Of a stretch of 53,749 nt of DNA, positions 4,229 to 51,099 are shown in pieces. The DNA is from Patiriisocius sp. (GTDB lineage: Bacteria > Patescibacteriota > Minisyncoccia > Phycocordibacterales > UBA918): assembly GCA_047624725.1 (NCBI GenBank), contig JBLHQB010000001.1, forward strand, positions 1-53,749, read 5' to 3'. A program made the position numbers and the translations under genes. The notes beneath the pieces are model-generated. The model did not search any database. It was not told where the DNA came from and saw only the letters and a list, made by a program, of their open reading frames with translations. Each line of letters starts with the position of its first letter. Within the stretch, counting starts at the first letter, position 1.

Positions 4229-4269
4229 CTTTGCGTAAGCGAGTTTTCAAATGGTATACTTACACAACT

Positions 4270-5634
4270 ATGCAAAAGATAGCTACTTTTTTCCTCATCC
4301 TCATTATTATACTGCCGTATGTTACATACGCAGAAACTGAAGCGGAACGACGTTCACGTCTTGAGGCACAGCTACAGGTAGTAGAAAAACAAATTATCCA
4401 GCAGCGTGTACTTGTGCAAGGGAAGCAACAAGAACGGCAATCGCTCGAGCGTGATCTTGCGATTATTGATGCGGAGGTGAACCAGGCCCAGTTAGGTATT
4501 CAAGCGCGCTCAGTAGCTATCGAACAACTCTCTACACAGATCGAAGATAAGGAAGAGGTGATCATTATTCTCAATGACCGCCTGGACAAGCAGCGGAAGT
4601 CGTTAGCTGAGCTTATCCGCAAGACACAGTCGGTGGATGATTTCTCATTGGCGGAGGTAATGCTCAGTAACGACAACTTCTCAGAGTTCTTCACCGACGT
4701 AGAAAGTTTCCGTGCAGTAAAGCAGTCGCTGAACGATTCGCTGAGTGCGCTTACACAAATTAAGACTGATGCGTATTCACAAAAGCTTTCACTTGAAGAG
4801 AAACAGTTGACCGAAGCTGAGATGAAGCAAGCACAAGAGATTGAGAAGAAAAATATCGAGGCACAGGAATCACAGAAGGAACAAATCCTTGCTACCACAA
4901 AAGGACAAGAGAAGGCGTACCAGCAGTTGTTAGCATCCCAGCAGAAAAATGCTGCGCAACTTAAGGCTCAACTCTTTGATCTACTTGGAGGTGGGGGAGC
5001 TATTCCATTTCCTCAAGCAGTTGCCTATGCACAAGTAGCTGAGAGTCTCACGGGCACACCAGCTGCGTTGATCCTTGCTATCCTTGAGCAGGAGTCAGCG
5101 TATGGAGGGAACATCGGTGGGTGTACTATGGGTGATGTGTCACTCGGTCGCGACATCATGCACCCAGATCGAGACAAACCACCGTTCTTAGTAATCGCAG
5201 CAGAGCTTGGGTTCGATCCAGAGACACAACAAGTATCGTGTCCACTACGCCGAAGTGACGGAACCCGAATCGGATGGGGAGGTGCGATGGGGCCTTCACA
5301 GTTTATCCCAAGCACGTGGGCAATCTACGGAGGATTCAAAAAAGATTCGTTCGGAACATATTCATACATACAAAGTCAGGATGCAATCCGTTCACTACTA
5401 AAGAAGTCAGTACCCGGTAGCCCGTTTAGTAACCAGGACGCATTCTTAGCAACAGGACTACTTCTGCGAGACAATGGAGCAACAGGAAGTTACAGCAGTG
5501 ACCGAACCGCAGCGCTGCGATACTACGCAGGATGGGGAGGAGCGAATAACCCAGAGAACTCGTTTTATGGGGATGGGGTTATGAAGCGGAAACAACGCCT
5601 CGACGGAGACATAGCAACCTTAACGGGACAATAG
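4270..5634 (+). CDS. Secreted coiled-coil protein with C-terminal lytic murein transglycosylase-like (SLT_2/MltB-type) domain
   Basis: Signal/TM MQKIATFFLILIIILPYVTYA, about 230 aa of Q/E/K-rich coiled coil, then ILAILEQESAYGGNIGGC and WGGAMGPSQFIPSTW motifs. Start set at ATG 4270 (the ORF-track start 4231 is TTG). Confidence 0.6.
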   Translation: MQKIATFFLILIIILPYVTYAETEAERRSRLEAQLQVVEKQIIQQRVLVQGKQQERQSLERDLAIIDAEVNQAQLGIQARSVAIEQLSTQIEDKEEVIIILNDRLDKQRKSLAELIRKTQSVDDFSLAEVMLSNDNFSEFFTDVESFRAVKQSLNDSLSALTQIKTDAYSQKLSLEEKQLTEAEMKQAQEIEKKNIEAQESQKEQILATTKGQEKAYQQLLASQQKNAAQLKAQLFDLLGGGGAIPFPQAVAYAQVAESLTGTPAALILAILEQESAYGGNIGGCTMGDVSLGRDIMHPDRDKPPFLVIAAELGFDPETQQVSCPLRRSDGTRIGWGGAMGPSQFIPSTWAIYGGFKKDSFGTYSYIQSQDAIRSLLKKSVPGSPFSNQDAFLATGLLLRDNGATGSYSSDRTAALRYYAGWGGANNPENSFYGDGVMKRKQRLDGDIATLTGQ

Positions 5635-5663
5635 CAGCTCATCAGCTTTGTTGAATGAAGAAA

Positions 5664-5727
5664 GAAGAGTAACGACTATTCTGAATTTATGTCCCAATTT
5701 TTTCTCCCCTCGAGAAAATTGCTGGAC
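5664..5727 (+). repeat. Family B element copy 1 (5' flank motif + bulged hairpin)
   Basis: ..GAGTAACGACTATTCTGAATTTAT GTCC-CAATTTTTTCTC-ccctc-GAGAAAATTG-ct-GGAC (hairpin 5691-5727). Confidence 0.8.
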
Positions 5728-5735
5728 GCGCTGCG

Positions 5736-5783
5736 AAAAAAGAGCCTCACCGTACGCAAGTACGACTCGGCTCTTTTTTCTTG
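5736..5783 (+). terminator. Family C terminator-hairpin module, copy 1
   Basis: AAAAAAGAGCCtcaCCGTACgcaaGTACGactcGGCTCTTTTTTCTT. Near-identical modules are at 38979 and 48253, and a degenerate one at 8892. Confidence 0.75.
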
Positions 5784-5843
5784 TACGCCGCGCATCTGAA
5801 CCACTCTTGTCTCGTTGAGCGATTGGGAGTTGTGTGACCATAC

Positions 5844-6015
5844 CGTCTTTACGTGAGAAAGTCTGGGAGACTTTCGCAAGAGGTTTAGGAAAATAAAGAG
5901 CGTAGTGATTATATTTTCTTTATGCGGAGCAACGCGATAGTGCCTGGTATTTTCTTCAGAAAATGGTGACAACCTGAACAGCTTCTGTAAGAAGGCTTCA
6001 GCCAAAGCAATCCAG
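5844..6015 (+). repeat. Family A unit split by the long form of structured cargo X (172 nt)
   Basis: CGTCTTTaCG...GCAATCCAG ends. Three internal hairpins at 5857-5875, 5949-5964 and 5982-5994. Close homolog at 48408-48570. Confidence 0.8.
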
Positions 6016-6084
6016 TATTCAACATCCAGCGCTCAACAATTTGAAAATAGATTCAGCTGCAAGGGGTGCCTGTGCCGACATAGT

Positions 6085-6114
6085 AAAAGGCGACCAAGAT
6101 GTTTCTCGGTCGCC
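6085..6114 (-). terminator. Rho-independent terminator of the 92-aa secreted protein gene
   Basis: Minus strand reads GGCGACCgagaaacatcttGGTCGCC + TTTT. Confidence 0.65.
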
Positions 6115-6121
6115 TGTGTGG

Positions 6122-6400
6122 TCATCTGGTGAACCAGATGATGTAACCCTTGAAGGGTCCTTTTGTGGTTACGAAGGAACGTCCTTCGTATGTTGCTCCC
6201 GGTGCGGTGGCGATATGTGCAATGCGCTCCGCCTCCGCCTGAGTTATGTAGCTAGTTTTTGAGATTACCGAACAGTTGGCGACGTGACCACTGTTTAGTT
6301 CCTTCGTGATTTCAATGATGTGCACTGGGCACTCAGCGGATGCTGTAGTAGCCATTGCAAGAACTGATGTTGCCAAAAGGCATTTTTTTAGAAAAGTCAT
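6122..6400 (-). CDS. Small secreted hypothetical protein (92 aa)
   Basis: Signal peptide MTFLKKCLLATSVLAMATTASA, GAGGAA RBS 5 nt upstream, and its own terminator. No family recognised. Confidence 0.5.
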   Translation of the reverse strand: MTFLKKCLLATSVLAMATTASAECPVHIIEITKELNSGHVANCSVISKTSYITQAEAERIAHIATAPGATYEGRSFVTTKGPFKGYIIWFTR

Positions 6401-6562
6401 GTATTCCTCGCTAAAATATGTCAGACCATACTGACGTCTATACAGACAATAGCCTAATAATAAAGTTTGTCAAGAGTGTGTTAGAGGCCTGAATATATTA
6501 AGGAAACAAACATAAGTGGATAATAGCTTAGTTAGAATATAAATAAAGACTATACTTATCCT

Positions 6563-7693
6563 ATGATAAAAGATTTATTGCTGTTTCTGCTGGGTGCACT
6601 AAAGCCCTCACGAAAGACTTTGATGCTGGGGTTATTGTTTGCTGTAGGAGTGTGCGGACTTTTCTACTTGTTTAATATGCTAAATGCCCCTGAAGAGATA
6701 CTTTTTACTGAAGCTCCAGAAGGAGAGCTTAATTATGGTCTTGAAGAGGAGCTTGATCCAGGTACACTTACTGAATACTACAGTGCCCTAACTGGCAACC
6801 TGTACTTCAATATCACCAGCCTTGATACCTATAATAAAATCACTGGTATCAATGTACATAAGCATAATCTGAACACCAGTAAAACAGTGCCAATGATTGC
6901 AGAGGGTGCACAATTTAACCTACGACCTGTTTCGGCTACCAGCGTAACCCTCGTCTCCCCGTTACTTAATGCTGATGGGAGTGTTACACCAACACCTGTT
7001 GTGTTGGATACCGTCACATTGAACTATAAAGATGTAGTGCTTCTTGATGGGTACATAACACGCGATGTTCTGTTTTCCCCTGACGAACGATATCTCGCTG
7101 TATCATTTGTCGATGAACAAGATAGGGAGGTATTTAAGAATTGGCGTATTGTGGTGTTTGATACCACTACGGACACGTCTATCCTGATACCAGGCGCAAA
7201 GTCACCACGGTGGCTCAGCGACAACACTGGTTTTGTGTTCCTGCAAGAAGACGGTGTGTATCAGTACGTCACTGAAGTTAATGGTGCACATGTTGTCTAT
7301 GCTGAATATCAATTCATGCACACCACCGCGGAGATTGCCCTTTCCCCTGACGATACACGTATTGTGTTGACACAACCTCTGTTTGATTCAATCTCAGTTC
7401 TTGAAGCCACAAGCACACAGCAAACCGCGTTTCATGAAACGGGACGTATTCAGACCAAGGGCCAGCACTACACGACCCCTGTTTTTTCTCCTGATGGAAA
7501 TTTCTACGCGACAGTTGCCTCCAATAACTTTGATTATGATTCACAAGAAAATCTGTACGAGGCGAATACTATTGAAATACGACGCGTGTTACACAGGAAT
7601 GTGATTGAAGTTATATCGCTGCTTGATTACAAGAAAGGAGTGTTGCAATTATCAGACTGGTCGACAATCGACGCTACGACAGTAGGAAGATAG
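6563..7693 (+). CDS. Membrane-anchored protein with TolB-like (PD40/WD40-like) beta-propeller repeats
   Basis: N-terminal TM (LMLGLLFAVGVCGLFYLF). Repeated FSPDERYLAV / LSPDDTRIVL / FSPDGNFYATV motifs. Confidence 0.55.
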   Translation: MIKDLLLFLLGALKPSRKTLMLGLLFAVGVCGLFYLFNMLNAPEEILFTEAPEGELNYGLEEELDPGTLTEYYSALTGNLYFNITSLDTYNKITGINVHKHNLNTSKTVPMIAEGAQFNLRPVSATSVTLVSPLLNADGSVTPTPVVLDTVTLNYKDVVLLDGYITRDVLFSPDERYLAVSFVDEQDREVFKNWRIVVFDTTTDTSILIPGAKSPRWLSDNTGFVFLQEDGVYQYVTEVNGAHVVYAEYQFMHTTAEIALSPDDTRIVLTQPLFDSISVLEATSTQQTAFHETGRIQTKGQHYTTPVFSPDGNFYATVASNNFDYDSQENLYEANTIEIRRVLHRNVIEVISLLDYKKGVLQLSDWSTIDATTVGR

Positions 7694-8926: not shown

Positions 8927-9011
8927 ATTTGCGCAGTAGCTGACCGCTCCCCAGGGCAGTCCTAGGGAGATTTGAAAAAAGACTTACGTAGCGTAGTATG
9001 AATGAAGAAAG

Positions 9012-9089
9012 GTGAGAAGTGACTCAATGTCACCTTGCAAGAGGTTGCCAGCTCATACGAGCGACAACCTGAACAGCTTCTGTAAGAAG
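9012..9089 (+). repeat. Structured cargo X, copy without family A ends
   Basis: GTGAGAA..GTGAC-tcaat-GTCAC..TTGCAAGAGGTT..GCTC-atac-GAGC GACAACCTGAACAG CTTCT-gta-AGAAG. Confidence 0.75.
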
Positions 9090-9090
9090 A

Positions 9091-9203
9091 ACCACAACTA
9101 TTCTGAATTTGTCCTAATTTATAAAGAGACCACAGTCGATTATAAAAATGGAAATACCCTTGGGGTGCTGTCCCGATTTTTCCTCCAAGGAAAATCGCTG
9201 GAC
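9091..9203 (+). repeat. Family B element copy 2 (interrupted by about 50 nt)
   Basis: ACAACTATTCTGAATTT GTCCTAATTT [insert] GTCC-CGATTTTTCC-tcca-GGAAAATCG-ct-GGAC (hairpin 9170-9203). Confidence 0.7.
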
Positions 9204-12614: not shown

Positions 12615-12620
12615 GTTTAA

Positions 12621-12649
12621 TGGATTGCTTTGTGAACTCGCAAAGACGG
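12621..12649 (-). repeat. Family A unit, inverted orientation
   Basis: TGGATTGCtttgtgaaCTCGCAAAGACGG. Confidence 0.75.
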
Positions 12650-12706: not shown

Positions 12707-12753
12707 TTTTTGGTTGGGATGTCTGAGCTAGATGATTTGATAGTTGTGCCTGC

Positions 12754-12867
12754 CGTCTTTGCGAGCCTCAGCGTGAGAAGTGACTTAATGTCAGTTCGCA
12801 AGAGGTTTCCTGATATTTCTTTAGAAATATTGAAAACCTGAACAGTTTCTGTAAGAAAGCAATCTAG
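12754..12867 (+). repeat. Family A unit split by the short form of cargo X (114 nt)
   Basis: CGTCTTTGCGAGCCTCAGCG..hairpins 12777-12797, 12812-12831, 12846-12858..GCAATCtAG. Confidence 0.8.
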
Positions 12868-12877
12868 AGTTTTGCTG

Positions 12878-13004
12878 CCTGGAGCCACACGAGTTACTAA
12901 CTATAATTATACGCTTCGCTTTAATTCTAGTAAGTACTCGCGACCCCGCCTCGCTGTTCGTCGTCCAGGAAGGACTCCTCACAACGCTCCGGCTTGGCTC
13001 CAGG
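12878..13004. other. GC-rich structured element closed by a 10-bp stem made of tRNA-Thr 3'-end-like sequence
   Basis: CCTGGAGCCA (12878-12887) pairs with TGGCTCCAGG (12995-13004). Nested imperfect helices sit inside. The 11-mer CCTGGAGCCAC repeats the 3' end of the tRNA-Thr gene region (13058-13068). Confidence 0.4.
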
Positions 13005-13030
13005 CACGTACCTGACGCAGGTCAGGTACT

Positions 13031-13056
13031 AAAAAAGCCCCTTGCGGGACTTTTTT
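13031..13056 (-). terminator. Rho-independent terminator downstream of tRNA-Thr
   Basis: Minus strand reads AAAAAAGTCCC-gcaa-GGGGCTTTTTT. It is preceded by a second hairpin GTACCTGAC-gcag-GTCAGGTAC (13008-13029). Confidence 0.7.
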
Positions 13057-13059
13057 ACC

Positions 13060-13135
13060 TGGAGCCACCTGTCAGATTCGAACTGACGACCTACTCATTA
13101 CAAGTGAGTTGCTCTACCAACTGAGCTAAGGTGGC
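13060..13135 (-). tRNA. tRNA-Thr (anticodon UGU), CCA encoded, discriminator U73
   Basis: Reverse complement GCCACCT-TA-GCTC-AGTTGGTA-GAGC-A-ACTCA-CTTGTAA-TGAGT-AGGTC-GTCAG-TTCGAAT-CTGAC-AGGTGGC-T-CCA. All four stems are perfect. Confidence 0.88.
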
Positions 13136-13258
13136 AATATTTTGTTGTACTACATTCTACACTCCCTCTGCTACCTGCTCACTTGTGACAAGTGATGAAA
13201 CAGTCTCCCAGACTATTTCATCTCTACCAACTGAGCTAAGGTGGCAATATTTTGTTGT
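13112..13258. repeat. Pair of perfect 37-nt direct repeats (13112-13148 and 13222-13258)
   Basis: CTCTACCAACTGAGCTAAGGTGGCAATATTTTGTTGT occurs twice. It comprises tRNA-Thr positions 1-24 plus 13 nt of upstream sequence. Confidence 0.85.
13150..13245 (-). pseudogene. Degenerate tandem copy of tRNA-Thr (tRNA-like remnant)
   Basis: Intact acceptor-5'/D-arm, then an 11-bp hairpin insert (TGAAATAGTCT-ggg-AGACTGTTTCA), then TCACTTGT (anticodon-loop remnant) and GAGCAGGTAGCAG (cf. GAGTAGGTCGTCAG). No T-arm or 3' acceptor. Confidence 0.5.
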
Positions 13259-21685: not shown

Positions 21686-21709
21686 ATATTTATTTCAGCA
21701 TCCCATCAT

Positions 21710-22079
21710 CGTCTTTGCGAGCGGAGCAAAGCAATCCAGGAATATAATATACAGATGGAAAAACAACCATGTGTCTATATTATGACAAACAAAAGAAACG
21801 GTACTTTGTATGCCGGTGTTACGAGTAATATTCATAAACGAGTCTCTGAACATGTTCAGGGTCAAGTAGAAGGTTTTACCAAGAGGTATCATCTCCACAG
21901 ATTGGTATATGTGGAAGCATGCGAAAATATGTTCCAAGCGATAGAACGCGAGAAGCAGATTAAAGCTGGATCCAGGAAGAAGAAATTAGAGCTTATTGAG
22001 AAAGAGAATCCATCGTGGAATGATTTATCTGAGATGATCTGACCCCTGGATTGCTTCGACTGAGGTCTCGCAAAGACGG
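21710..22079 (+). mobile_element. GIY-YIG nuclease gene bracketed by inverted family A units (370-bp putative mobile or domesticated element)
   Basis: Left unit 21710-21740 ends 14 nt before the ATG. The inverted right unit 22045-22079 starts 2 nt after the stop. Confidence 0.6.
21755..22042 (+). CDS. GIY-YIG (URI-domain) nuclease family protein, 95 aa
   Basis: PCVYIMTNKRNGTLYAGVTSNIHKRVSEH...EREKQIKAGSRKKK shows the GIY...YxG, Arg and Glu core pattern of small stand-alone GIY-YIG proteins. Confidence 0.82.
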   Translation: MEKQPCVYIMTNKRNGTLYAGVTSNIHKRVSEHVQGQVEGFTKRYHLHRLVYVEACENMFQAIEREKQIKAGSRKKKLELIEKENPSWNDLSEMI

Positions 22080-22126
22080 TGGGTAGTAAGCCATTCGTCT
22101 TTGCGAGCCTCAGCGCGGCAATCCAG
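22045..22126. repeat. Inverted pair of family A units (R then F) forming an 82-nt hairpin
   Basis: CCTGGATTGCttcgaCTGAGGtCTCGCAAAGACGG-16 nt-CGTCTTTGCGAGCCTCAGcgcgGCAATCCAG. Confidence 0.8.
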
Positions 22127-22136
22127 CAAGCGTAAG

Positions 22137-26036: not shown

Positions 26037-26135
26037 AAACAATGGTAAGGGCATAATTTGTCCTTACCACTTCTAATATTCTTGCGTACTGGTGTAGGTG
26101 AGAATATTAAGAGGTTATTAAAATCAACGTATTAT

Positions 26136-29100
26136 ATGTTTACAAAAAAAATTACAATCAATGTATTAGGTATCGCTATTTTAGTTATGCTTGCAGTAGG
26201 AGTTCCTGTGTCTATGACAGGAAATCACTCACTTGAAGTAAATGAAGTAGCTGCATTCGGTAGTTCATCAGGAGGCGGAAGTGGAAGTGGAAGTGGAGGA
26301 GGAAGTGGCTGTGGAAGCTGTGGTTCAGACCCAACACCAACACCAACACCAACACCAACACCAACACCAAGCCCTAAGCCACCAACGTGTAACTACCTAA
26401 AGGCTAATGGTAAGACTGGAACACTGACAGTCCCATACGGTGGAGCTAACGTATCACTAAACTGGTCGTCTTCAAAGGCAACAGGTGCTACGCTGACACC
26501 AACTGGTTCTGCAGTTTCTGTAAGTGGATCAAAGTCAGTAAACGTATCGTCAAATACAACGTTTACACTACGAGTTTCAAACTCAGACGGTGCACGTACC
26601 TGTAAGGTAGTAGTGAAAGTTGCTTCTGCAACACCACCATCATGTGACTCATTCACCGGAACACCTACATCACTTCCATACGGAGGCGGAACGGTAAACC
26701 TAAACTGGAAGACTACAAACGCTGACTCAGTATCAATCAACCAAGGAGTTGGTTCAGTGGTTGCTGACGGCTCAAAGCCTGTAAACGTATCAAATACAAT
26801 CACCTACACCCTGACAGCTAAAAAGGCTGGATACGCAAACGTGACCTGCCCAGTGAAGATCACGGTAAGGCCTGACGTTGCTGCACCATCATGTGACTCA
26901 TTCACCGGAACACCTACATCACTTCCATACGGAGGTGGAACAGTAAACTTAAACTGGTCTACATCAAACGCTGATTCAGTAGCAATCAACCAAGGAGTTG
27001 GTTCAGTAGTTGTTGACGGATCAAAGCCTGTAAACGTATCGAATACTATTACGTACACACTTACGGTAAAAAAAGCTGGGTTTGCAAACGCAACTTGCCC
27101 AGTGAAGATCACGGTAAGGCCTGACGTTGCTGCACCATCATGTGACTCATTCACCGGAACACCTACATCACTTCCATACGGAGGTGGAACAGTAAACTTA
27201 AACTGGTCTACATCAAACGCTGATTCAGTAGCAATCAACCAAGGAGTTGGTTCAGTAGTTGTTGACGGATCAAAGCCTGTAAACGTATCGAACACGATCA
27301 CCTACATACTTACTGCAAAGAAAGCTGGTTTCCCAACTGCTACCTGTCCTGTAACAATCACGGTAAAGCCAGACACAGACGCACCATCGTGTGATTCATT
27401 CTCTGGTACACCTACAACACTTCCATACGGAGGCGGAAACGTTGCACTGACATGGGCTACATCAAACGCTGACTCAGTATCAATCGATCAAGGTATTGGT
27501 GCAGTTAATGCTGATGATTCACGAGCTGAAACGGTAACTGACACAATTACATACACACTGACAGCTAAGAAAGCAGGATTCACTGACGCATTGTGTCCAG
27601 TGAAGATCACGGTGCTTCCGATGACAAACGTCCTTACGTGTAGTGATGTTTCATTCACTGCTTCAGATACACTTGTGAAGAAGGGAGATACGGTAAACCT
27701 TGCATGGGTATTCACTGGAAACGTAGCAAGTGGATCAATTGACCAGGGGATTGGACCGGTATCAAGTAACCAAAACCGTGATGTTGTAATCAATAATCAG
27801 ATTACATACACAATGACTATCAAGGATGCTACTACAGAAGTACAGTGTCCACTGACTATTAAGCTTGAATCTGACCCGGTATTCAGTTGTGCTGCTAACG
27901 TAAACTTTGACGCTGACGATACATCACTTCCAAGGGGTGGAGGAGATGTGGTCCTTACATGGAGTACTACTGATGTAGATTCAATTTCAATTCCTGGAGT
28001 TGTGTCAAACAATCTTAATGATTCAGAAACAGTAAATATTACTGCAGACCGAACGTACACCCTTACTGCAACAAAAGCTGGATTCGCAGGCATCCAATGT
28101 CCCGTTAAAATTGACGTTGCTAACGGTGGCGGAGGTGGTGGCGGAGGTTCATCAACTCCACGATGTGATCTTGATATCTCTGACGACAAGATCAAACTTG
28201 GAGAGGAAATCACTCTAGAGTGGGACACATCGCGAGCTACTGAAGTAGTTATCGAAGACAACCACGGTAACATCATCGTTACTACTGAAGATCTATCAAG
28301 TTCTGAAGCTAAGGACTTATACGACGGAGAAATTACACTAAAGCCTAAGAAGGATACAGAATACACAATTACTGCATCAAAGGGATCTAAGGATCGAGAA
28401 TGTGATGTAGAGGTTGAAGTAGAAAATAGTATTACGGTACTAGAATCACGAAATCAAGAACCACGAGTTGCTGGTATCTCACTGACACAAGTGCCATACA
28501 CAGGATTCGAGGCGGGACCAATGCTTACATTCTTCTTCTATGTACTACTCACACTATGGGGTCTGTTTGTAGCATATGTATTTGTTATCAAACGAGACAC
28601 ATTCGGCGGGGTATCTCTTGCAGGTGCACACACACACGTGCAGTACACTGACGTAAGTGTTGAAGCTGAAACTATTACAGAATCATCAGTTGCTGATGGA
28701 TATGTACAGGCAAGCACGCACGTTGCTGCTCCTGCAAATCTACCGGTTGCAACACCTGCAACAGTAGGATACGCATCAATGGTTTCAGAAGTTTCTGATG
28801 AAGAGACTGCAGAATCAATTGAAATGACTGAAATTGAAAACGCTGCTCACGCACAAAACATCCTTCTCTCAAGTGACGCAATGCGATTCTGCATGAACTG
28901 TACTGAGGAAGGAGCTGAACGTGTAGCAAAGATCAACGCAGTATTCGCTAAAGCTAAGGCAGCATACCCAAGTGAAGAAGGATGGGTAGCGCTTAACCTT
29001 GCTCGAGTAGAGTCTCTTATGGACAATGAAGAAGCTGCTGCAGAAGTAGCGACTCAGACAGAAGCAATTTCTGGAGGGTCACTCGCTGAAGCAATCGTAA

Positions 29101-29372
29101 CTGGTAACATCGTAGCGGCGTATCAAATGATCGACAACCGACCAATGATCGCACTAGCAGATGCTGCATCTGACCTTGATCTAGTATTCCGATCACGAAA
29201 GGGAGAAGAGGTGACTGTATCAACAGTACTTGCAGAAAACACAACTGATCTATCGCTAGAACAGTTAGTTGAAGCAATCACTGCACTTACAGGAGCACTT
29301 GACGGAACATACACAAGTGAAGGGGAAGCGGTTAAGATGGCGATTCTAAAAGCTGTAAAAGCTACAGCGTAA
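26136..29372 (+). CDS. Giant surface protein: N-terminal TM, G/S and PT linkers, about 9 Ig-like repeats, VPYTG motif + TM, about 250-aa C-terminal cytoplasmic domain
   Basis: MFTKKITINVLGIAILVMLAVGV. (CCAACA)n PT linker at 26331-26369. 83-aa repeats with paired Cys. VPYTG at 28491-28505 followed by MLTFFFYVLLTLWGLFVAYVFVIKR. Confidence 0.75.
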   Translation: MFTKKITINVLGIAILVMLAVGVPVSMTGNHSLEVNEVAAFGSSSGGGSGSGSGGGSGCGSCGSDPTPTPTPTPTPTPSPKPPTCNYLKANGKTGTLTVPYGGANVSLNWSSSKATGATLTPTGSAVSVSGSKSVNVSSNTTFTLRVSNSDGARTCKVVVKVASATPPSCDSFTGTPTSLPYGGGTVNLNWKTTNADSVSINQGVGSVVADGSKPVNVSNTITYTLTAKKAGYANVTCPVKITVRPDVAAPSCDSFTGTPTSLPYGGGTVNLNWSTSNADSVAINQGVGSVVVDGSKPVNVSNTITYTLTVKKAGFANATCPVKITVRPDVAAPSCDSFTGTPTSLPYGGGTVNLNWSTSNADSVAINQGVGSVVVDGSKPVNVSNTITYILTAKKAGFPTATCPVTITVKPDTDAPSCDSFSGTPTTLPYGGGNVALTWATSNADSVSIDQGIGAVNADDSRAETVTDTITYTLTAKKAGFTDALCPVKITVLPMTNVLTCSDVSFTASDTLVKKGDTVNLAWVFTGNVASGSIDQGIGPVSSNQNRDVVINNQITYTMTIKDATTEVQCPLTIKLESDPVFSCAANVNFDADDTSLPRGGGDVVLTWSTTDVDSISIPGVVSNNLNDSETVNITADRTYTLTATKAGFAGIQCPVKIDVANGGGGGGGGSSTPRCDLDISDDKIKLGEEITLEWDTSRATEVVIEDNHGNIIVTTEDLSSSEAKDLYDGEITLKPKKDTEYTITASKGSKDRECDVEVEVENSITVLESRNQEPRVAGISLTQVPYTGFEAGPMLTFFFYVLLTLWGLFVAYVFVIKRDTFGGVSLAGAHTHVQYTDVSVEAETITESSVADGYVQASTHVAAPANLPVATPATVGYASMVSEVSDEETAESIEMTEIENAAHAQNILLSSDAMRFCMNCTEEGAERVAKINAVFAKAKAAYPSEEGWVALNLARVESLMDNEEAAAEVATQTEAISGGSLAEAIVTGNIVAAYQMIDNRPMIALADAASDLDLVFRSRKGEEVTVSTVLAENTTDLSLEQLVEAITALTGALDGTYTSEGEAVKMAILKAVKATA
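26637..27632 (+). repeat. Four tandem 249-bp (83-aa) coding repeats
   Basis: Units start at 26637, 26886, 27135 and 27384 (CCATCATGTGACTCATTCACCGG..). Units 2 and 3 are identical over their first 165 nt or so. More diverged units flank them. Confidence 0.85.
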
Positions 29373-31600: not shown

Positions 31601-31619
31601 AATAGTAATTGGTTTGTAT

Positions 31620-31698
31620 CGTCTTTGCGAACGTCAGTGAAGCAATCCAGAGTTGGGTAACAAGGCTCTGGATCGCCGCATTAACACTCGCGAAGACA
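31620..31698. repeat. Gene-less inverted pair of family A units (F then R), 79-nt hairpin in the thrS 5' UTR
   Basis: CGTCTTTGCGAacgtcagtgaaGCAATCCAGAG-13 nt-CTCTGGATcGCcgcattaacaCTCGCGAAGAC. Confidence 0.8.
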
Positions 31699-35932: not shown

Positions 35933-36003
35933 CCTGGATTGCCACGCTCGCGCTCGCAAAGACGGAGTGTTGTCTTTGCGAGACCCTGGTCGAAGCAATC
36001 CAG
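35933..36003. repeat. Inverted pair of family A units (R then F) between divergent dnaE and rnhB
   Basis: CCTGGATTGCcacgctcgcgCTCGCAAAGACGG-agtgt-tGTCTTTGCGAGaccctggtcgaaGCAATCCAG. Confidence 0.8.
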
Positions 36004-36029
36004 CGCCGTTACTGGTATATTTCTTACTA

Positions 36030-36683
36030 ATGAACAAATACACCATAGGTATAGACGAAGCTGGACGAGGTCCATTAGCAGGCCCTGTCTCTGTTGGCGT
36101 CGCATGCGTACCTGCTGACTTTAATTGGGATCAGATTCCTGGTGTAAACGATTCGAAGAAGCTTACCGAAAAGAAACGAGAAGAAATTTTTGATATTGCG
36201 AATAGTTTAGAAAAGGAAGGGAAGCTGCAAACTGAAGTGGTGATGGTTGCAGCGAACGTGATTGATGAGATCGGAATCGTACCATCGGTCACCAAAGCAA
36301 TGCATCGTGCACTACACAAGATTGAAGAAAATATGGCTAAAAGTTCGAGATCCGTACTCGAACTTGAGGATGTTCGAGATCCGTACTCGAACGTGTCGGT
36401 TAAGCTTGATGGGGGACTGAAGGCTCCTGATCATTATTCTAATCAGGAGACGATTGTTAAGGGTGATGCGAAGGAGAAGGTGATTGGTTTGGCATCTATT
36501 ATGGCGAAGGTGACACGGGATCGGTATATGGTGCAAAGGCATGCAGAGCCAGATTTTGCGGTATATATGTTTGATGCACATAAGGGGTATGGTACGAAAA
36601 AGCATCGTGAAGCTATCGCACAAAATGGTTTATCTGTAGAGCATCGTAGAAGCTATTGTAAACAAATAAGCAAAGGAACGTAG
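36030..36683 (+). CDS. rnhB: Ribonuclease HII
   Basis: MNKYTIGIDEAGRGPLAGPVSVG..DSKKL..ASIMAKVTRD..GYGT. Start moved to ATG 36030. The last 4 codons + stop lie inside the family B flank motif. Confidence 0.88.
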   Translation: MNKYTIGIDEAGRGPLAGPVSVGVACVPADFNWDQIPGVNDSKKLTEKKREEIFDIANSLEKEGKLQTEVVMVAANVIDEIGIVPSVTKAMHRALHKIEENMAKSSRSVLELEDVRDPYSNVSVKLDGGLKAPDHYSNQETIVKGDAKEKVIGLASIMAKVTRDRYMVQRHAEPDFAVYMFDAHKGYGTKKHREAIAQNGLSVEHRRSYCKQISKGT

Positions 36684-36740
36684 TGACTATTGCGAATTTA
36701 GTTCCCAATTCCCTCCTTTCTTAGAAGGAATTGCTGGAAC
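36674..36740 (+). repeat. Family B element copy 3
   Basis: AGGAACGTAGTGACTATTGCGAATTTA GTTCC-CAATTCC..GGAATTG-ct-GGAAC (hairpin 36701-36740). Confidence 0.8.
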
Positions 36741-38954: not shown

Positions 38955-39063
38955 CGTCATCTACTTTGTCAGACTACGAAAAAAGAGCCTTACCGTACGT
39001 TAAGTACGACTCGGCTCTTTTTTCTTGTCTTCCGCGTATCTAACGCTATTTCTTGGCCACTAA
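38937..39063. repeat. 20-bp inverted repeat enclosing family C terminator module copy 2
   Basis: TTAGTGGCCAAGAAATAACG (last 6 codons + stop of nusB) pairs with CGCTATTTCTTGGCCACTAA (39044-39063), 19/20. Confidence 0.8.
38979..39027 (+). terminator. Family C terminator-hairpin module, copy 2
   Basis: AAAAAAGAGCCttaCCGTACgttaaGTACGactcGGCTCTTTTTTCTT. Confidence 0.75.
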
Positions 39064-42813: not shown

Positions 42814-42835
42814 CAAATGAGTAAATGTCCGAAGG

Positions 42836-42889
42836 GCATATTACGAATTTAGTTCCCGATTTTTTCTCCCTTGAGAAAATCGCTGGAAC
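42836..42889 (+). repeat. Family B element copy 4
   Basis: GCATATTACGAATTTA GTTCC-CGATTTTTTCTC-cctt-GAGAAAATCG-ct-GGAAC. Confidence 0.8.
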
Positions 42890-43056
42890 TCGAAGTATCA
42901 AATTACCATAGAGCATGTATAGCAGTACTTTGTTCCCGCCCCTTCCTTACAGGAACTGTACACTTTGTCAGTCTTTCCTTTGGAAAACACTAGGCAAAGT
43001 CTTGAGAAGTGACATTGAGTCACTTCTCACCTAGGGCAAATCGCTGGAACTCGAAG
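42877..43056 (+). repeat. 19-nt direct repeat pair flanking two more module-like hairpins
   Basis: AAATCGCTGGAACTCGAAG occurs at 42877-42895 and 43038-43056. Between them are GTTCC..GGAAC (42931-42955) and GAGAAGTGAC-attga-GTCACTTCTC (43004-43028, cf. hairpin 1 of cargo X). Confidence 0.7.
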
Positions 43057-47154: not shown

Positions 47155-47610
47155 ATGTTAATGATGAGATTACAACGAGTCGGCCGCAAAAACGATCCTA
47201 GTTATCGTATTGTGGTGACTGATAAGCGTACTGGCCCAAAGAGCAACAAGCATGTAGCAATCATCGGATCTTACAATCCGAAGATGAGTCACATTCAGCT
47301 TGATGTGGATGCGGCTAAGGACTGGCTTTCAAAGGGTGTGCAGCCTTCAGATACCGTGCACAACATTCTCGTCGGACAAAAAGTGATTGATGCGAAAAAG
47401 GTAAACCCTCTTCCAAAGAAATCACCTATTGTTGACGAAGAAGCAGTTGCAAAGGCAGCTGAAGAAAAGGCGGCAGCTGAAGAAGCAGCTAAAGCTGAAG
47501 AAGCTGCTAAGGCGGAAGCTGAAGCGTCGACTGAAGAAGAAGTTTCTACAGAAGAAGTTGTAGAAACTGAGGAAGCTCCTGTAGAGGAGGCACCTGCAGA
47601 GGATAAATAA
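47155..47610 (+). CDS. rpsP: 30S ribosomal protein S16 with A/E/K-rich C-terminal tail
   Basis: MLMMRLQRVGRKNDPSYRIVVTDKR..IGSYNP...AKDWLSKGVQPSDTV. Confidence 0.9.
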   Translation: MLMMRLQRVGRKNDPSYRIVVTDKRTGPKSNKHVAIIGSYNPKMSHIQLDVDAAKDWLSKGVQPSDTVHNILVGQKVIDAKKVNPLPKKSPIVDEEAVAKAAEEKAAAEEAAKAEEAAKAEAEASTEEEVSTEEVVETEEAPVEEAPAEDK

Positions 47611-47678
47611 GCAAAGGAGTGTAACGACTATTGCGCATTTATGTCCCGATTTTTTCTCCCTTGAGAAAATCGCTGGAC
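47611..47678 (+). repeat. Family B element copy 5
   Basis: GCAAAGGAGTGTAACGACTATTGCGCATTTAT GTCC-CGATTTTTTCTC-cctt-GAGAAAATCG-ct-GGAC, directly after the rpsP stop. Confidence 0.8.
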
Positions 47679-48219: not shown

Positions 48220-48336
48220 ATTAACTGGCAAATTTCTTTGTCAGGCTACGAGAAAAAGAGCCTCACCGTACAGTAAGTACGGCTCGGCTCTTTTTTCTTG
48301 CCTTCCGCGAACTTCACTCAGTTAATTTAGATTTTG
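48210..48336. repeat. Perfect 18-bp inverted repeat enclosing family C terminator module copy 3
   Basis: CAAAATCTAAATTAACTG (48210-48227, includes the khpA stop codon) pairs with CAGTTAATTTAGATTTTG (48319-48336). Confidence 0.85.
48253..48300 (+). terminator. Family C terminator-hairpin module, copy 3
   Basis: AAAAAGAGCCtcaCCGTACagtaaGTACGGctcGGCTCTTTTTTCTT. Confidence 0.75.
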
Positions 48337-48407
48337 GTGCATGGTATTACAGATTAATACTGAGAGTGGAAAACATAAACCTTTCGATATATCGAAAGGT
48401 TTGTATT

Positions 48408-48570
48408 CGTCTTTGCGTGAGAAAGTGTTTGCACACTTTCGCAAGTGGTTTAGGAAAATAAAGAACGTAGTGATTATATTTTCTTTATGCGGAGCAACGC
48501 GATAGTGCCTGCTATGTAAATAGCGACAACCTGAACAGCTTCTGTAAGAAGCGGAAGCGTGGCAATCCAG
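48408..48570 (+). repeat. Family A unit split by the long form of cargo X (163 nt)
   Basis: CGTCTTTGCG..hairpins 48421-48440, 48511-48524, 48539-48551..GCAATCCAG. The 57-nt internal segment 48451-48507 is 56/57 identical to 5886-5942. Confidence 0.8.
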
Positions 48571-48634
48571 TGTCAGCGCAGTGTGATGTCTTAATACTAC
48601 GGTTAACCGTAGTATTGAGTAGCCTTTTTATTTT

Positions 48635-50812: not shown

Positions 50813-51029
50813 CCTAACCTCCTATAGGATTGTTTATACTGTGGTCTGATTGCTACGGTATCACGCAGTAGGCCGCATTGCAATATACTCCAAAGCCTGT
50901 ATAATAGCGCCCACTAACGCATTTTCTATTCGAGTGAGTCACGGTTGCGACAAGAATAGCGGAGGTTCGGACAATTACACGGGTGGGAGTCTGTGGTCCA
51001 AAAAAAACAACACTTTTCATTAGAAAACC

Positions 51030-51099
51030 AAGGAACGAAGTGACTATGGTTCTCTTATGCGGAGTATATAAAAACAAGGTATGTAATGACTATGTTTTT
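51030..51099 (+). repeat. Two adjacent hairpins displaying the GTAGTGAYTAT-type loop motif
   Basis: AAGGAAC-gaagtgactatg-GTTCTCTT ATGCGGAG.. and AAAAAC-aaggtatgtaatgactat-GTTTTT. ATGCGGAG is also shared with the cargo X long-form insert. Confidence 0.6.

Follow-up and report, generated by a model that had tools for sequence, protein, structure and literature searches.

The element examined here, denoted X, was found in five copies in a stretch of 53,749 nucleotides (nt) of Patescibacteria DNA (contig JBLHQB010000001.1, assembly GCA_047624725.1; the whole stretch is referred to as the window). X is a structured RNA or single-stranded DNA (ssDNA) element under selection for its fold, covariation in its helices being statistically supported; its size is ca. 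76–100 nt, or more where other elements are nested inside, and it is previously uncatalogued. The reading that we favour, with somewhat better than even confidence, is that X is a non-autonomous, structure-dependent mobile insertion element specific to Patescibacteria, which would be acted on by a factor in trans or would itself be catalytic.

X comprises three hairpins (P1, P2 and P3), and its limits in the window were counted from the preceding G (G−1) to the end of P3. Copy 1 (5853–5994, + strand, long form; 67 bits as a single match) has G−1 at 5853 and P1 at 5854–5878, followed by a 57-nt insert (5886–5942) that interrupts the 5' strand of P2, by the inner hairpin of P2, by AACCUGAACAG and by P3. 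Copy 2 (9012–9089, +, canonical short form; 65 bits) is located in the rpmE–prfA spacer and interrupts a unit of repeat family B (AATGAAGAAAGG-X'-AACCACAACTATTCTGAATTT, where X' is the inserted unit); a sigma70-like motif, TTGAAA-16-TAGTAT, was noted by eye directly upstream. Copy 3 (12773–12858, +, canonical short form; 73.3 bits) replaces the CG of a unit of repeat family A. Copy 4 (48417–48551, +, long form) is placed in a family-A unit that has khpA on one side and a NADAR-domain gene on the other, and holds the 57-nt insert at 48451–48507. Copy 5 (42943–43030, −; 57.9 bits, covariance model run with filters off) has a P2 base helix compensatorily altered to GACUUUG/CAAAGUG and follows AGG in a copy of the family-B hairpin, the empty counterpart of the site (…CAAGG-GA-GAAAAAA…) being found 36 nt further. 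A P1-only hairpin (mini-X; 13195–13221, −; AUGAAAUAGUC-UGGGA-GACUGUUUCAU; 18.3 bits) belongs to a partial 5' copy of tRNA-Thr, in which it follows GGUAGAG. All five copies have the same sense as the gene immediately upstream; these genes are housekeeping ones, and the copies are dispersed in the spacers of housekeeping operons.

A first-pass annotation of the window had listed four copies. These were recovered at their places: the 24-nt 3' block AACCTGAACAGYTTCTGTAAGAAR occurs exactly four times (none expected), and the middle block TTCGCAAGAGGTT was found at all four with at most two mismatches; copy 5 on the minus strand and the P1-only hairpin had been overlooked. The limits 9012–9089 were accurate, and those of copies 1, 3 and 4 had been drawn too wide, including the flanking halves of family-A units (left CCGTCTTTRC, right GCAATCCAGT). 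These halves lie, on the + strand, at 5843–5853 and 5995–6016 (copy 1), 12753–12773 and 12859–12868 (copy 3), and 48407–48417 and 48552–48571 (copy 4). The consensus of the family-A unit is TCGTCTTTGCGAGCCTCAGCGCGGCAATCCAG. Its uninterrupted copy at 22095–22130 (+; …CCTCAGCG-CG-GCAATCC…), taken as the empty-site reference, matches the left flank of copy 3 over 20 nt (20/20, 22096–22115) and has CG where X sits, in agreement with the proposed insertion of X into family-A units. The 57-nt segments of copies 1 and 4 are 56/57 identical, as had been reported; they occupy the same position of P2 in spite of differing neighbouring helices. A free-standing relative of this segment (51020–51064, 76% similar) resembles the promoter-like block of family B.

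The constant core of X is GUGA-P1-GCAAGA-P2-N(G/A/U)ACAG-P3, with the P3 loop C-UGUAA-G. The three hairpins and the AGGTT/AACCT closing helix proposed at first were recovered by minimum-free-energy folding and by covariation, and single-sequence folding gave the same three hairpins; the GTGAGAA and TTCGCAA blocks, taken at first for single-stranded, pair with each other as lower P1 (U2-A26, G3-C25, one A.G mismatch). MAFFT alignment of 111 raw copies followed by RNAalifold misaligned P1 and P2, only the invariant P2 base being found; it was replaced by a seed of 36 length-matched copies, the structure of which was written by hand. In this set, 91.6% of the cells were paired, 20 of 28 pairs had changed on both sides, and slid controls gave at most 50%. 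In a second set (92 matches, 91 distinct, mostly non-seed), 95.0% were paired vs 72.3% after shuffling, 27 of 28 pairs had changed on both sides with 458 compensatory cells, and slid controls gave at most 47%; as the alignment of this set was fitted to the model, it is biased in favour of the structure, but by far less than the effect observed. The observed values were reached by 0 of 500 shuffles in either set, and this very strong covariation in the larger alignment upholds the earlier view that the fold is under selection. Free of any alignment, at least eight consecutive P1 pairs with the copy's own partner strand were formed in 89 of 111 copies (cross-copy pairings averaged 3.7), and a full P3 in 86 of 111. 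The P2 base helix occurs as GGUU/AACC, CUCAU/AUGAG, CCUU/AAGG and CUUU/AAAG (the last in window copy 5); copies with such variants are the ones that the search pattern given below could not select.

The folded strand is probably the one given (+ sense). P1 contains 27 G:U against 3 A:C oppositions, an excess that favours this strand, and GU is frequent at pairs 5-61 and 77-193 of the second-set alignment; the assignment is kept at probable because the conserved C.A opposition in P2 reads as G.U on the other strand.

The pattern GCAAGWGGTT-N12-42-AACCTGAACAG was searched with one genome per species. At least 115 stretches were matched, nearly all of them in metagenome-assembled genomes (MAGs) of Patescibacteria, with the host labels Paceibacteria, Kaiserbacteria, Nomurabacteria and Minisyncoccia, along with 'Saccharibacteria'-labelled MAGs; ca. 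52 different assemblies were present among the first 80 matches listed, and only ca. 3 matches were devoid of the remaining features of X. The 115 loci from other genomes were fetched as 8-kb stretches and are cited by L-numbers (L002, L086 etc.). With the covariance model, 407 kb of fetched loci yielded 76 copies and 455 kb yielded 92; the density was 5 copies in the 54-kb window and ca. 1 per 5–10 kb in the sequences examined. Relative to the upstream open reading frame (ORF), 54 copies of all loci had the same and 31 the opposite orientation (ca. 64:36), a mild bias. The same pattern gave 0 matches in 2.9 million viral contigs. A search for long-P2 or autonomous forms with a 60–90-nt gap in the much larger metagenome set gave 21 matches, all by chance and without P1 or P3, and the loci from other genomes contained no long-P2 form.

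X was matched by no Rfam 15 family in scans of three stretches at the gathering threshold and at E ≤ 10, in line with the first proposal of a novel structured element. In the E ≤ 10 scan of 5600–6600 and 8980–9120 nothing was found on the strand of X, the lone overlap being a 12-bit TarB match on the opposite strand; hammerhead, twister, pistol, hatchet and hepatitis delta virus (HDV) ribozymes gave no match at this threshold. A search of full-text literature and preprints yielded no description of the element. All-vs-all clustering of 996 ORFs of the 115 loci, aimed at a linked enzyme, gave families of 9 loci at most, all of them housekeeping; no RAYT, TnpA or enriched reverse transcriptase was seen near X in the 115 8-kb loci and the 54-kb window.

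The flanks of each copy were joined together and searched across all loci in order to find empty sites. These always carry exactly 2 nt more than the filled ones (at least nine independent target types), and both ends of X' were exact in every filled/empty pair: X' begins with UGAGAA, ends at the last base paired in P3, follows G, and replaces two target bases. The following targets were found (replaced dinucleotide between hyphens): tRNA-Val, tRNA-Asn and a His-like tRNA at GGUAGAG-CA-G; the P1 loop of sister elements at GGAG-CU-UCGCAAG; 5S rRNA at GGGG-CA-GAGUAGG (L086); the start of an msrA gene at GCAGGAG-GU-UGC (L089); a different repeat family at GUAGAG-GA-UGUUCG (L026, L049, L061, L097, L106); CUUGGG-CG-AAUCGC, likewise differing by 2 nt between the filled and empty states; in the window, CAGCG-CG-GCAAUC (family A) and CAAGG-GA-GAAAAAA (family B). 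In the logo of the left flank the three positions are G (55%), R (73%) and G (77% or more); the right flank is without consensus, GUGA is present in 109 of 111 copies, and the 5' junction is always G followed by U. Terminal inverted repeats are absent (5' end UGAGAA; 3' end, the variable P3 strand), and so is target-site duplication, filled and empty sites differing by the loss of exactly 2 nt. Of the initial alternative, a non-coding RNA (ncRNA) or a structured miniature inverted-repeat transposable element (MITE), the structured nature was retained; a MITE in the strict sense was discarded on account of these two absences, and an ncRNA gene is less likely than a mobile element, because copies nest, lie either way in tRNA fragments and show a mild orientation bias.

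Removal of X would not restore the host RNA: GAG-CA-G of the tRNA has become GAG-X'-G, and GGGG-CA-GAG of the 5S rRNA has become GGGG-X'-GAG, the interrupted copies being truncated; splicing cannot regenerate the host RNA since the target dinucleotide is missing. Models based on a serine or tyrosine recombinase, integron attC, the archaeal bulge-helix-bulge (BHB) or group I/II introns were ruled out by the 2-nt loss and missing core motifs, and blunt capture at nuclease breaks by the constant presence of GRG 5' of X.

The targets are rich in hairpins: loops of sister elements, family-A and family-B units, D/anticodon and T arms of tRNAs, 5S rRNA and an mRNA start. X nests in the UGGGA loop of sister elements (after UGG), the outer copy having at times decayed later, and forms tandem abutting arrays (L040, L047, L004). 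It hosts in turn small elements, viz. the 57-nt insert in P2 (window copies 1 and 4) and a hairpin element 'Z' in the P3 loop (L086, L067). X with differing helix sequences occupies the orthologous position of tRNA-Asn (L010, L018, L029, L057, L062, L092, L107) and the GACGUCGUAGAG site (L026, L049, L061, L097, L106). The Z element (…CUCGGAAAUGGAAGC-AA-GCUUCCAUUUC…) was also observed beside pseudo-tRNA pieces; its sites are L086 (668–745 and 990–1055), L067, and upstream of the tRNA-Asn copies in L010, L029, L057, L062, L092 and L107.

Partial gene copies are frequent beside X, commonly in the layout [left flank A – X' – short right flank B] – spacer – [A – NN – B – rest of the intact gene]. 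At 17 of 122 sites, an exact repeat of the left flank (12 nt or more) stands within 400 nt downstream, beside an intact target, and at 3 it stands upstream; an upstream recurrence of the right flank was found at 2. Partial 5' copies upstream and/or 3' copies downstream accompany 22 of the 51 tRNA genes in the loci, mostly abutting X in either orientation, and X was found within 300 nt of an intact tRNA in 29 cases vs ca. 7 expected. By this polar local duplication essential RNA genes stay intact beside X-bearing partial copies. In L086 (560–1320), an intact 5S gene with 20-nt processing-stem repeats and a terminator is nested in an older 5S copy, the two halves of which bear X and three other insertions; in L002 (6320–6900), an intact tRNA-Ala between inverted repeats of ca. 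20–35 nt is nested in the anticodon loop of an older copy; in L057 (ca. 4230–4900), the 5' parts of tRNA-Asn are present in three nested generations. Together with L104 (ca. 1980–2400), these are 'Russian-doll' loci, in which an intact 5S or tRNA gene lies inside older copies riddled with X and further small insertions.

The window repeats the layout twice, at tRNA-Thr (13060–13258) and at copy 5 on the family-B hairpin. The tRNA-Thr locus (12877–13258, −) contains a partial 5' copy (13222–13258, −; 13 upstream nt and tRNA positions 1–24) bearing mini-X, a perfect 6-bp fold-back of an anticodon-stem strand, and the intact tRNA (13060–13135, −) with a terminator; ca. 180 nt beyond the tRNA, a 9-nt remnant of its 3' end, GGCTCCAGG, adjoins the antisense X copy 3. 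Several origins of the partial copies were considered and set aside. Simple tandem duplication including the upstream spacer was rejected, since the upstream region and spacer resembled each other in just 4 of 15 cases. Mature tRNA as the source is unsupported because the partial copies lack non-encoded CCA (the apparent CCA of L057 is a shared downstream motif, CAGAGAGAA). A fold-back (B-loop-antiB-antiNN) as the general closing helix was found at 3 of 118 sites by strict criteria, plus the tRNA-Cys and tRNA-Thr cases. A left flank starting at the transcription start fits the window tRNA-Thr, L010 and L089, fails in L034 and L086, and was not adopted. In L063 and in the second tRNA copy of L010, an intact-looking tRNA is extended past the CTGTAA of the anticodon loop by a long insert (…AAATAGCAGCCTTA…), which may be an intron of the group I type; such copies are not called as tRNAs by ARAGORN.

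According to the favoured reading, the folded single strand of X would serve as the substrate of a trans-acting factor, which may be a conserved enzyme or the catalytic core of the X RNA itself. X integrates immediately 3' of the last G of G-R-G, ousting the next two target nucleotides, with the right flank free; movement would proceed via a single-stranded intermediate. The duplication of the target may be made by the insertion/repair process itself, or, in essential genes, may be the sole outcome compatible with survival. As the intermediate, RNA (ribozyme-assisted or reverse-transcribed) and ssDNA are about equally probable: the former is suggested by the G.U wobble, purine-rich invariant joiners, ribozyme-like architecture and invariance of the core across deep lineages; the latter by the precise ends, fixed target motif, hairpin-DNA targets, P1-only derivatives and the failure to find a reverse transcriptase. 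Several observations count against a mobile element of this kind. No transposase, reverse transcriptase or nuclease was tied to X among the neighbouring ORFs of the 115 loci, and filled/empty polymorphism was not seen at the single locus checked. The ca. 35 core nucleotides are near-invariant over very divergent lineages, which is atypical for transposase-recognised repeats, and the helices are intact even where the adjoining pseudo-tRNA flank has diverged by 12–26%; both would also fit a host-beneficial RNA kept in place. The C.A opposition in P2 (G.U on the opposite strand) is a further such point, and we know of no well-characterised bacterial transposition chemistry that combines an exact 2-nt loss with two precise ends.

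Should X be instead a host-functional structured RNA module, acting in processing, stability or protein binding in operon spacers, spread by recombination and kept by purifying selection like the domesticated repetitive extragenic palindromes (REP) and bacterial interspersed mosaic elements (BIME) of enterobacteria, then the invariant core in many lineages, the nearly always intact helices, the persistence at orthologous sites with different helices (tRNA-Asn locus; GACGUCGUAGAG site), the co-orientation of 5/5 window copies with the upstream gene in housekeeping operon spacers and the sigma70-like motif seen upstream of copy 2 would be accounted for. We consider such a module unlikely: the orientation bias overall is just ca. 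64:36, association with particular genes is inconsistent, copies nest, disrupt one another, occur antisense in tRNA fragments and form tandem arrays, and the insertion sites obey a sequence rule of the kind typical of integration. A REP/PATE-type repeat acting solely at the level of DNA, whose folded ssDNA would be moved by an HUH enzyme (IS200/IS605 TnpA or RAYT-like) or another nuclease, possibly the small GIY-YIG proteins that abound in these genomes, is likewise improbable. It would explain insertion beside a short motif with precise ends and no target duplication, targets that are themselves hairpin-forming DNA, the P1-only mini-elements and the P2 position that is G.T on the other strand; GUGA with the P1 hairpin recalls REP with its GTAG, and in the window, family-A units, which are the commonest hosts of X there, lie on either side of a gene for a 95-aa GIY-YIG protein. 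IS200/IS605-type insertion, however, leaves all target bases in place, the 115 × 8-kb loci showed neither TnpA nor RAYT genes, phylum-wide invariance of ca. 35 nt and a three-way junction are foreign to known REPs and PATEs, and the fixed orientation to GRG speaks against simple capture at blunt nuclease breaks.

Catalysis by X was weighed in two forms. As a new small self-cleaving and/or self-ligating RNA with ends at the G-U junction and after P3, X might be intron-like or retro-mobile (a 'bacterial SINE', or short interspersed nuclear element, 'with a ribozyme'). The three-helix junction with invariant joiners and freely covarying helices corresponds to small-ribozyme architecture, the nucleotide-precise ends with an invariable G-U 5' junction and the twintron-like nesting would agree with it, G.U wobble favours an RNA-type fold, and the constant 2-bp target deletion is shared with the R2 retrotransposon. 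Against these stand the lack of similarity to Rfam ribozymes even at E ≤ 10, the inability of splicing to restore a host RNA from which 2 nt are gone, the lack of a linked reverse transcriptase, and the fact that neither 5'-truncated copies nor tails were seen and partial tRNA copies are without non-encoded CCA; this form appears quite doubtful. The other form, a minimal catalytic mobile RNA, is rather unlikely: a three-way-junction ribozyme of ca. 80 nt (or a ribozyme-like substrate of a conserved host enzyme) would cut between G and U and swap itself for the dinucleotide of a structured RNA or DNA target, and fixation of X together with a regenerated target copy would then give rise to the 'Russian-doll' tRNA and 5S loci.

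Among known systems, X most resembles small repeats of the REP/BIME or PATE type in behaviour, yet departs from them in several defining traits. REP, BIME and REPIN of proteobacteria, mobilised by RAYT, are like X short, abundant, extragenic, hairpin-forming, non-coding, modular and mixed with other repeat modules; they carry a conserved tetranucleotide 5' of the hairpin, occur in operon spacers and are possibly partly domesticated. X differs in its three-hairpin junction (P2 and P3 in addition to GUGA and P1, GUGA being different from GTAG), ca. 35 phylum-wide invariant joiner/loop nucleotides, the 2-nt target loss, entry into tRNA and 5S copies and the absence of a linked RAYT. PATEs (derived from IS200/IS605) and MITEs (Correia, RUP, ERIC, RPE) are, like X, non-autonomous, structured and located beside a short target motif; PATEs share with X the lack of target duplication, and RPEs also nest and enter RNA genes. 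In contrast to them, X has neither terminal inverted repeats nor target-site duplication, loses 2 nt and has no autonomous partner found; seamless insertion of the IS200/IS605 type was not observed either, two target bases being lost 3' of G(RG). Copies of X in one genome differ by compensated helix changes and are not the near-identical products of a burst.

The site-specific R2 non-long-terminal-repeat retrotransposon, which has SINE-like derivatives, targets rRNA genes, produces a 2-bp target deletion (Bombyx) and has a structured RNA recognised by its reverse transcriptase, the 5' end being defined by an HDV-like ribozyme that cuts its RNA. The small fixed deletion is the one trait common to R2 and X and the only parallel for the constant 2-nt loss known to us; R2, however, is a eukaryotic, kilobase-scale element that codes for its own protein and whose 5' junctions vary, whereas X is of ca. 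80 nt with two precise junctions and no linked reverse transcriptase, and its 5' junctions are too precise to sit comfortably with target-primed reverse transcription of the R2 type. Group I/II introns, twintrons and archaeal BHB tRNA introns share with X structured sites in tRNA and rRNA, nesting, a conserved core and covarying helices; X differs by the lack of an Rfam intron match, the two missing exon nucleotides and interrupted copies that are truncated beside an intact gene. Small self-cleaving ribozymes (hammerhead, twister, pistol, hatchet, HDV-like) are comparable in size, multi-helix junction, invariant joiners, multi-copy occurrence and association with repeats, but X matches none of them in sequence or structure (cmscan, E ≤ 10), and its catalysis is putative. 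Integron attC sites likewise conserve structure over sequence and recombine as a folded single strand beside G, but the R''/R' pair (RYYYAAC/GTTRRRY) is absent from the consensus of X, which deletes 2 nt of its target and has no cassette arrays and no integrase nearby.

Other repeats surround X. Family-A units of 31–36 nt are intergenic and occur on both strands (21709–22130, 1755–1790, 12619–12649, 31619–31654, 35933–36004). The GIY-YIG nuclease ORF (21755–22042, 95 aa) is bracketed by three of them, both inverted and direct, an arrangement suggestive of a small mobile GIY-YIG cassette. X-bearing family-A units were also found in L012, L017, L080, L096, L101, L105 and L115. The family-B module (5654–5726, 36665–36719, 42816–42887, 47606–47677, 43024–43056) starts at or beside the stop codons of + strand genes and combines a block resembling a promoter (…CGTAGTGACTATTGCGAATTT…) with a long hairpin (GUUCC…UUUUCUC-CCUUGAG…GGAAC); X occupies one and the same site in it across several genomes (window copy 2; L045, L048, L066, L084). 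The repeat unit GGGCGACGUCGUAGAG-GA-UGUUCGAACUGUGU hosts X in five species (L026, L049, L061, L097, L106), with several empty copies per locus. A terminator-like 57-nt hairpin (AAAAAGAGCC…GGCTCTTTTTT) occurs three times (5736–5792, 38980–39036, 48253–48309), in two cases ca. 50–100 nt upstream of the long copies of X.

The window is a Patescibacteria cellular chromosome, as indicated by its housekeeping ORFs, one tRNA-Thr (the sole Rfam match above the gathering threshold) and only trivial similarity to phage records. Its large ORFs encode PheRS-beta, GyrB, ThrRS, DnaE, SMC and RNase R (Pfam), and further ones RF1, L31, S16, EF-Ts and a KhpA-type KH protein; the initial idea of T7-like phage promoters and RNase III sites was dropped on the Pfam assignments of the large ORFs. 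In agreement with an early guess that the DNA came from the Candidate Phyla Radiation (CPR), related loci are almost all from Patescibacteria/CPR MAGs. The ORF of 1104 aa at 26058–29372 contains 4–5 tandem repeats of 249 nt (83 codons; 26526–28088, 64–90% identical), probably a repeated surface or Ig-like domain.

The Patescibacteria (CPR) account for much of bacterial diversity and have tiny genomes, in which X is nonetheless frequent and reshapes the loci of essential RNA genes (tRNAs, 5S rRNA). None of the catalogued RNA families or repeat classes tested fits the combination of the core, the covarying helices, the replacement of 2 nt after G and the absence of a linked protein. The covariance model and the insertion rule can be used for genome annotation and for correcting pseudogene calls of tRNA and 5S rRNA. 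Were X mobile through RNA or ribozyme chemistry, it would represent a new kind of minimal mobile genetic element; were it functional for the host, it would be a major unannotated RNA of CPR bacteria.

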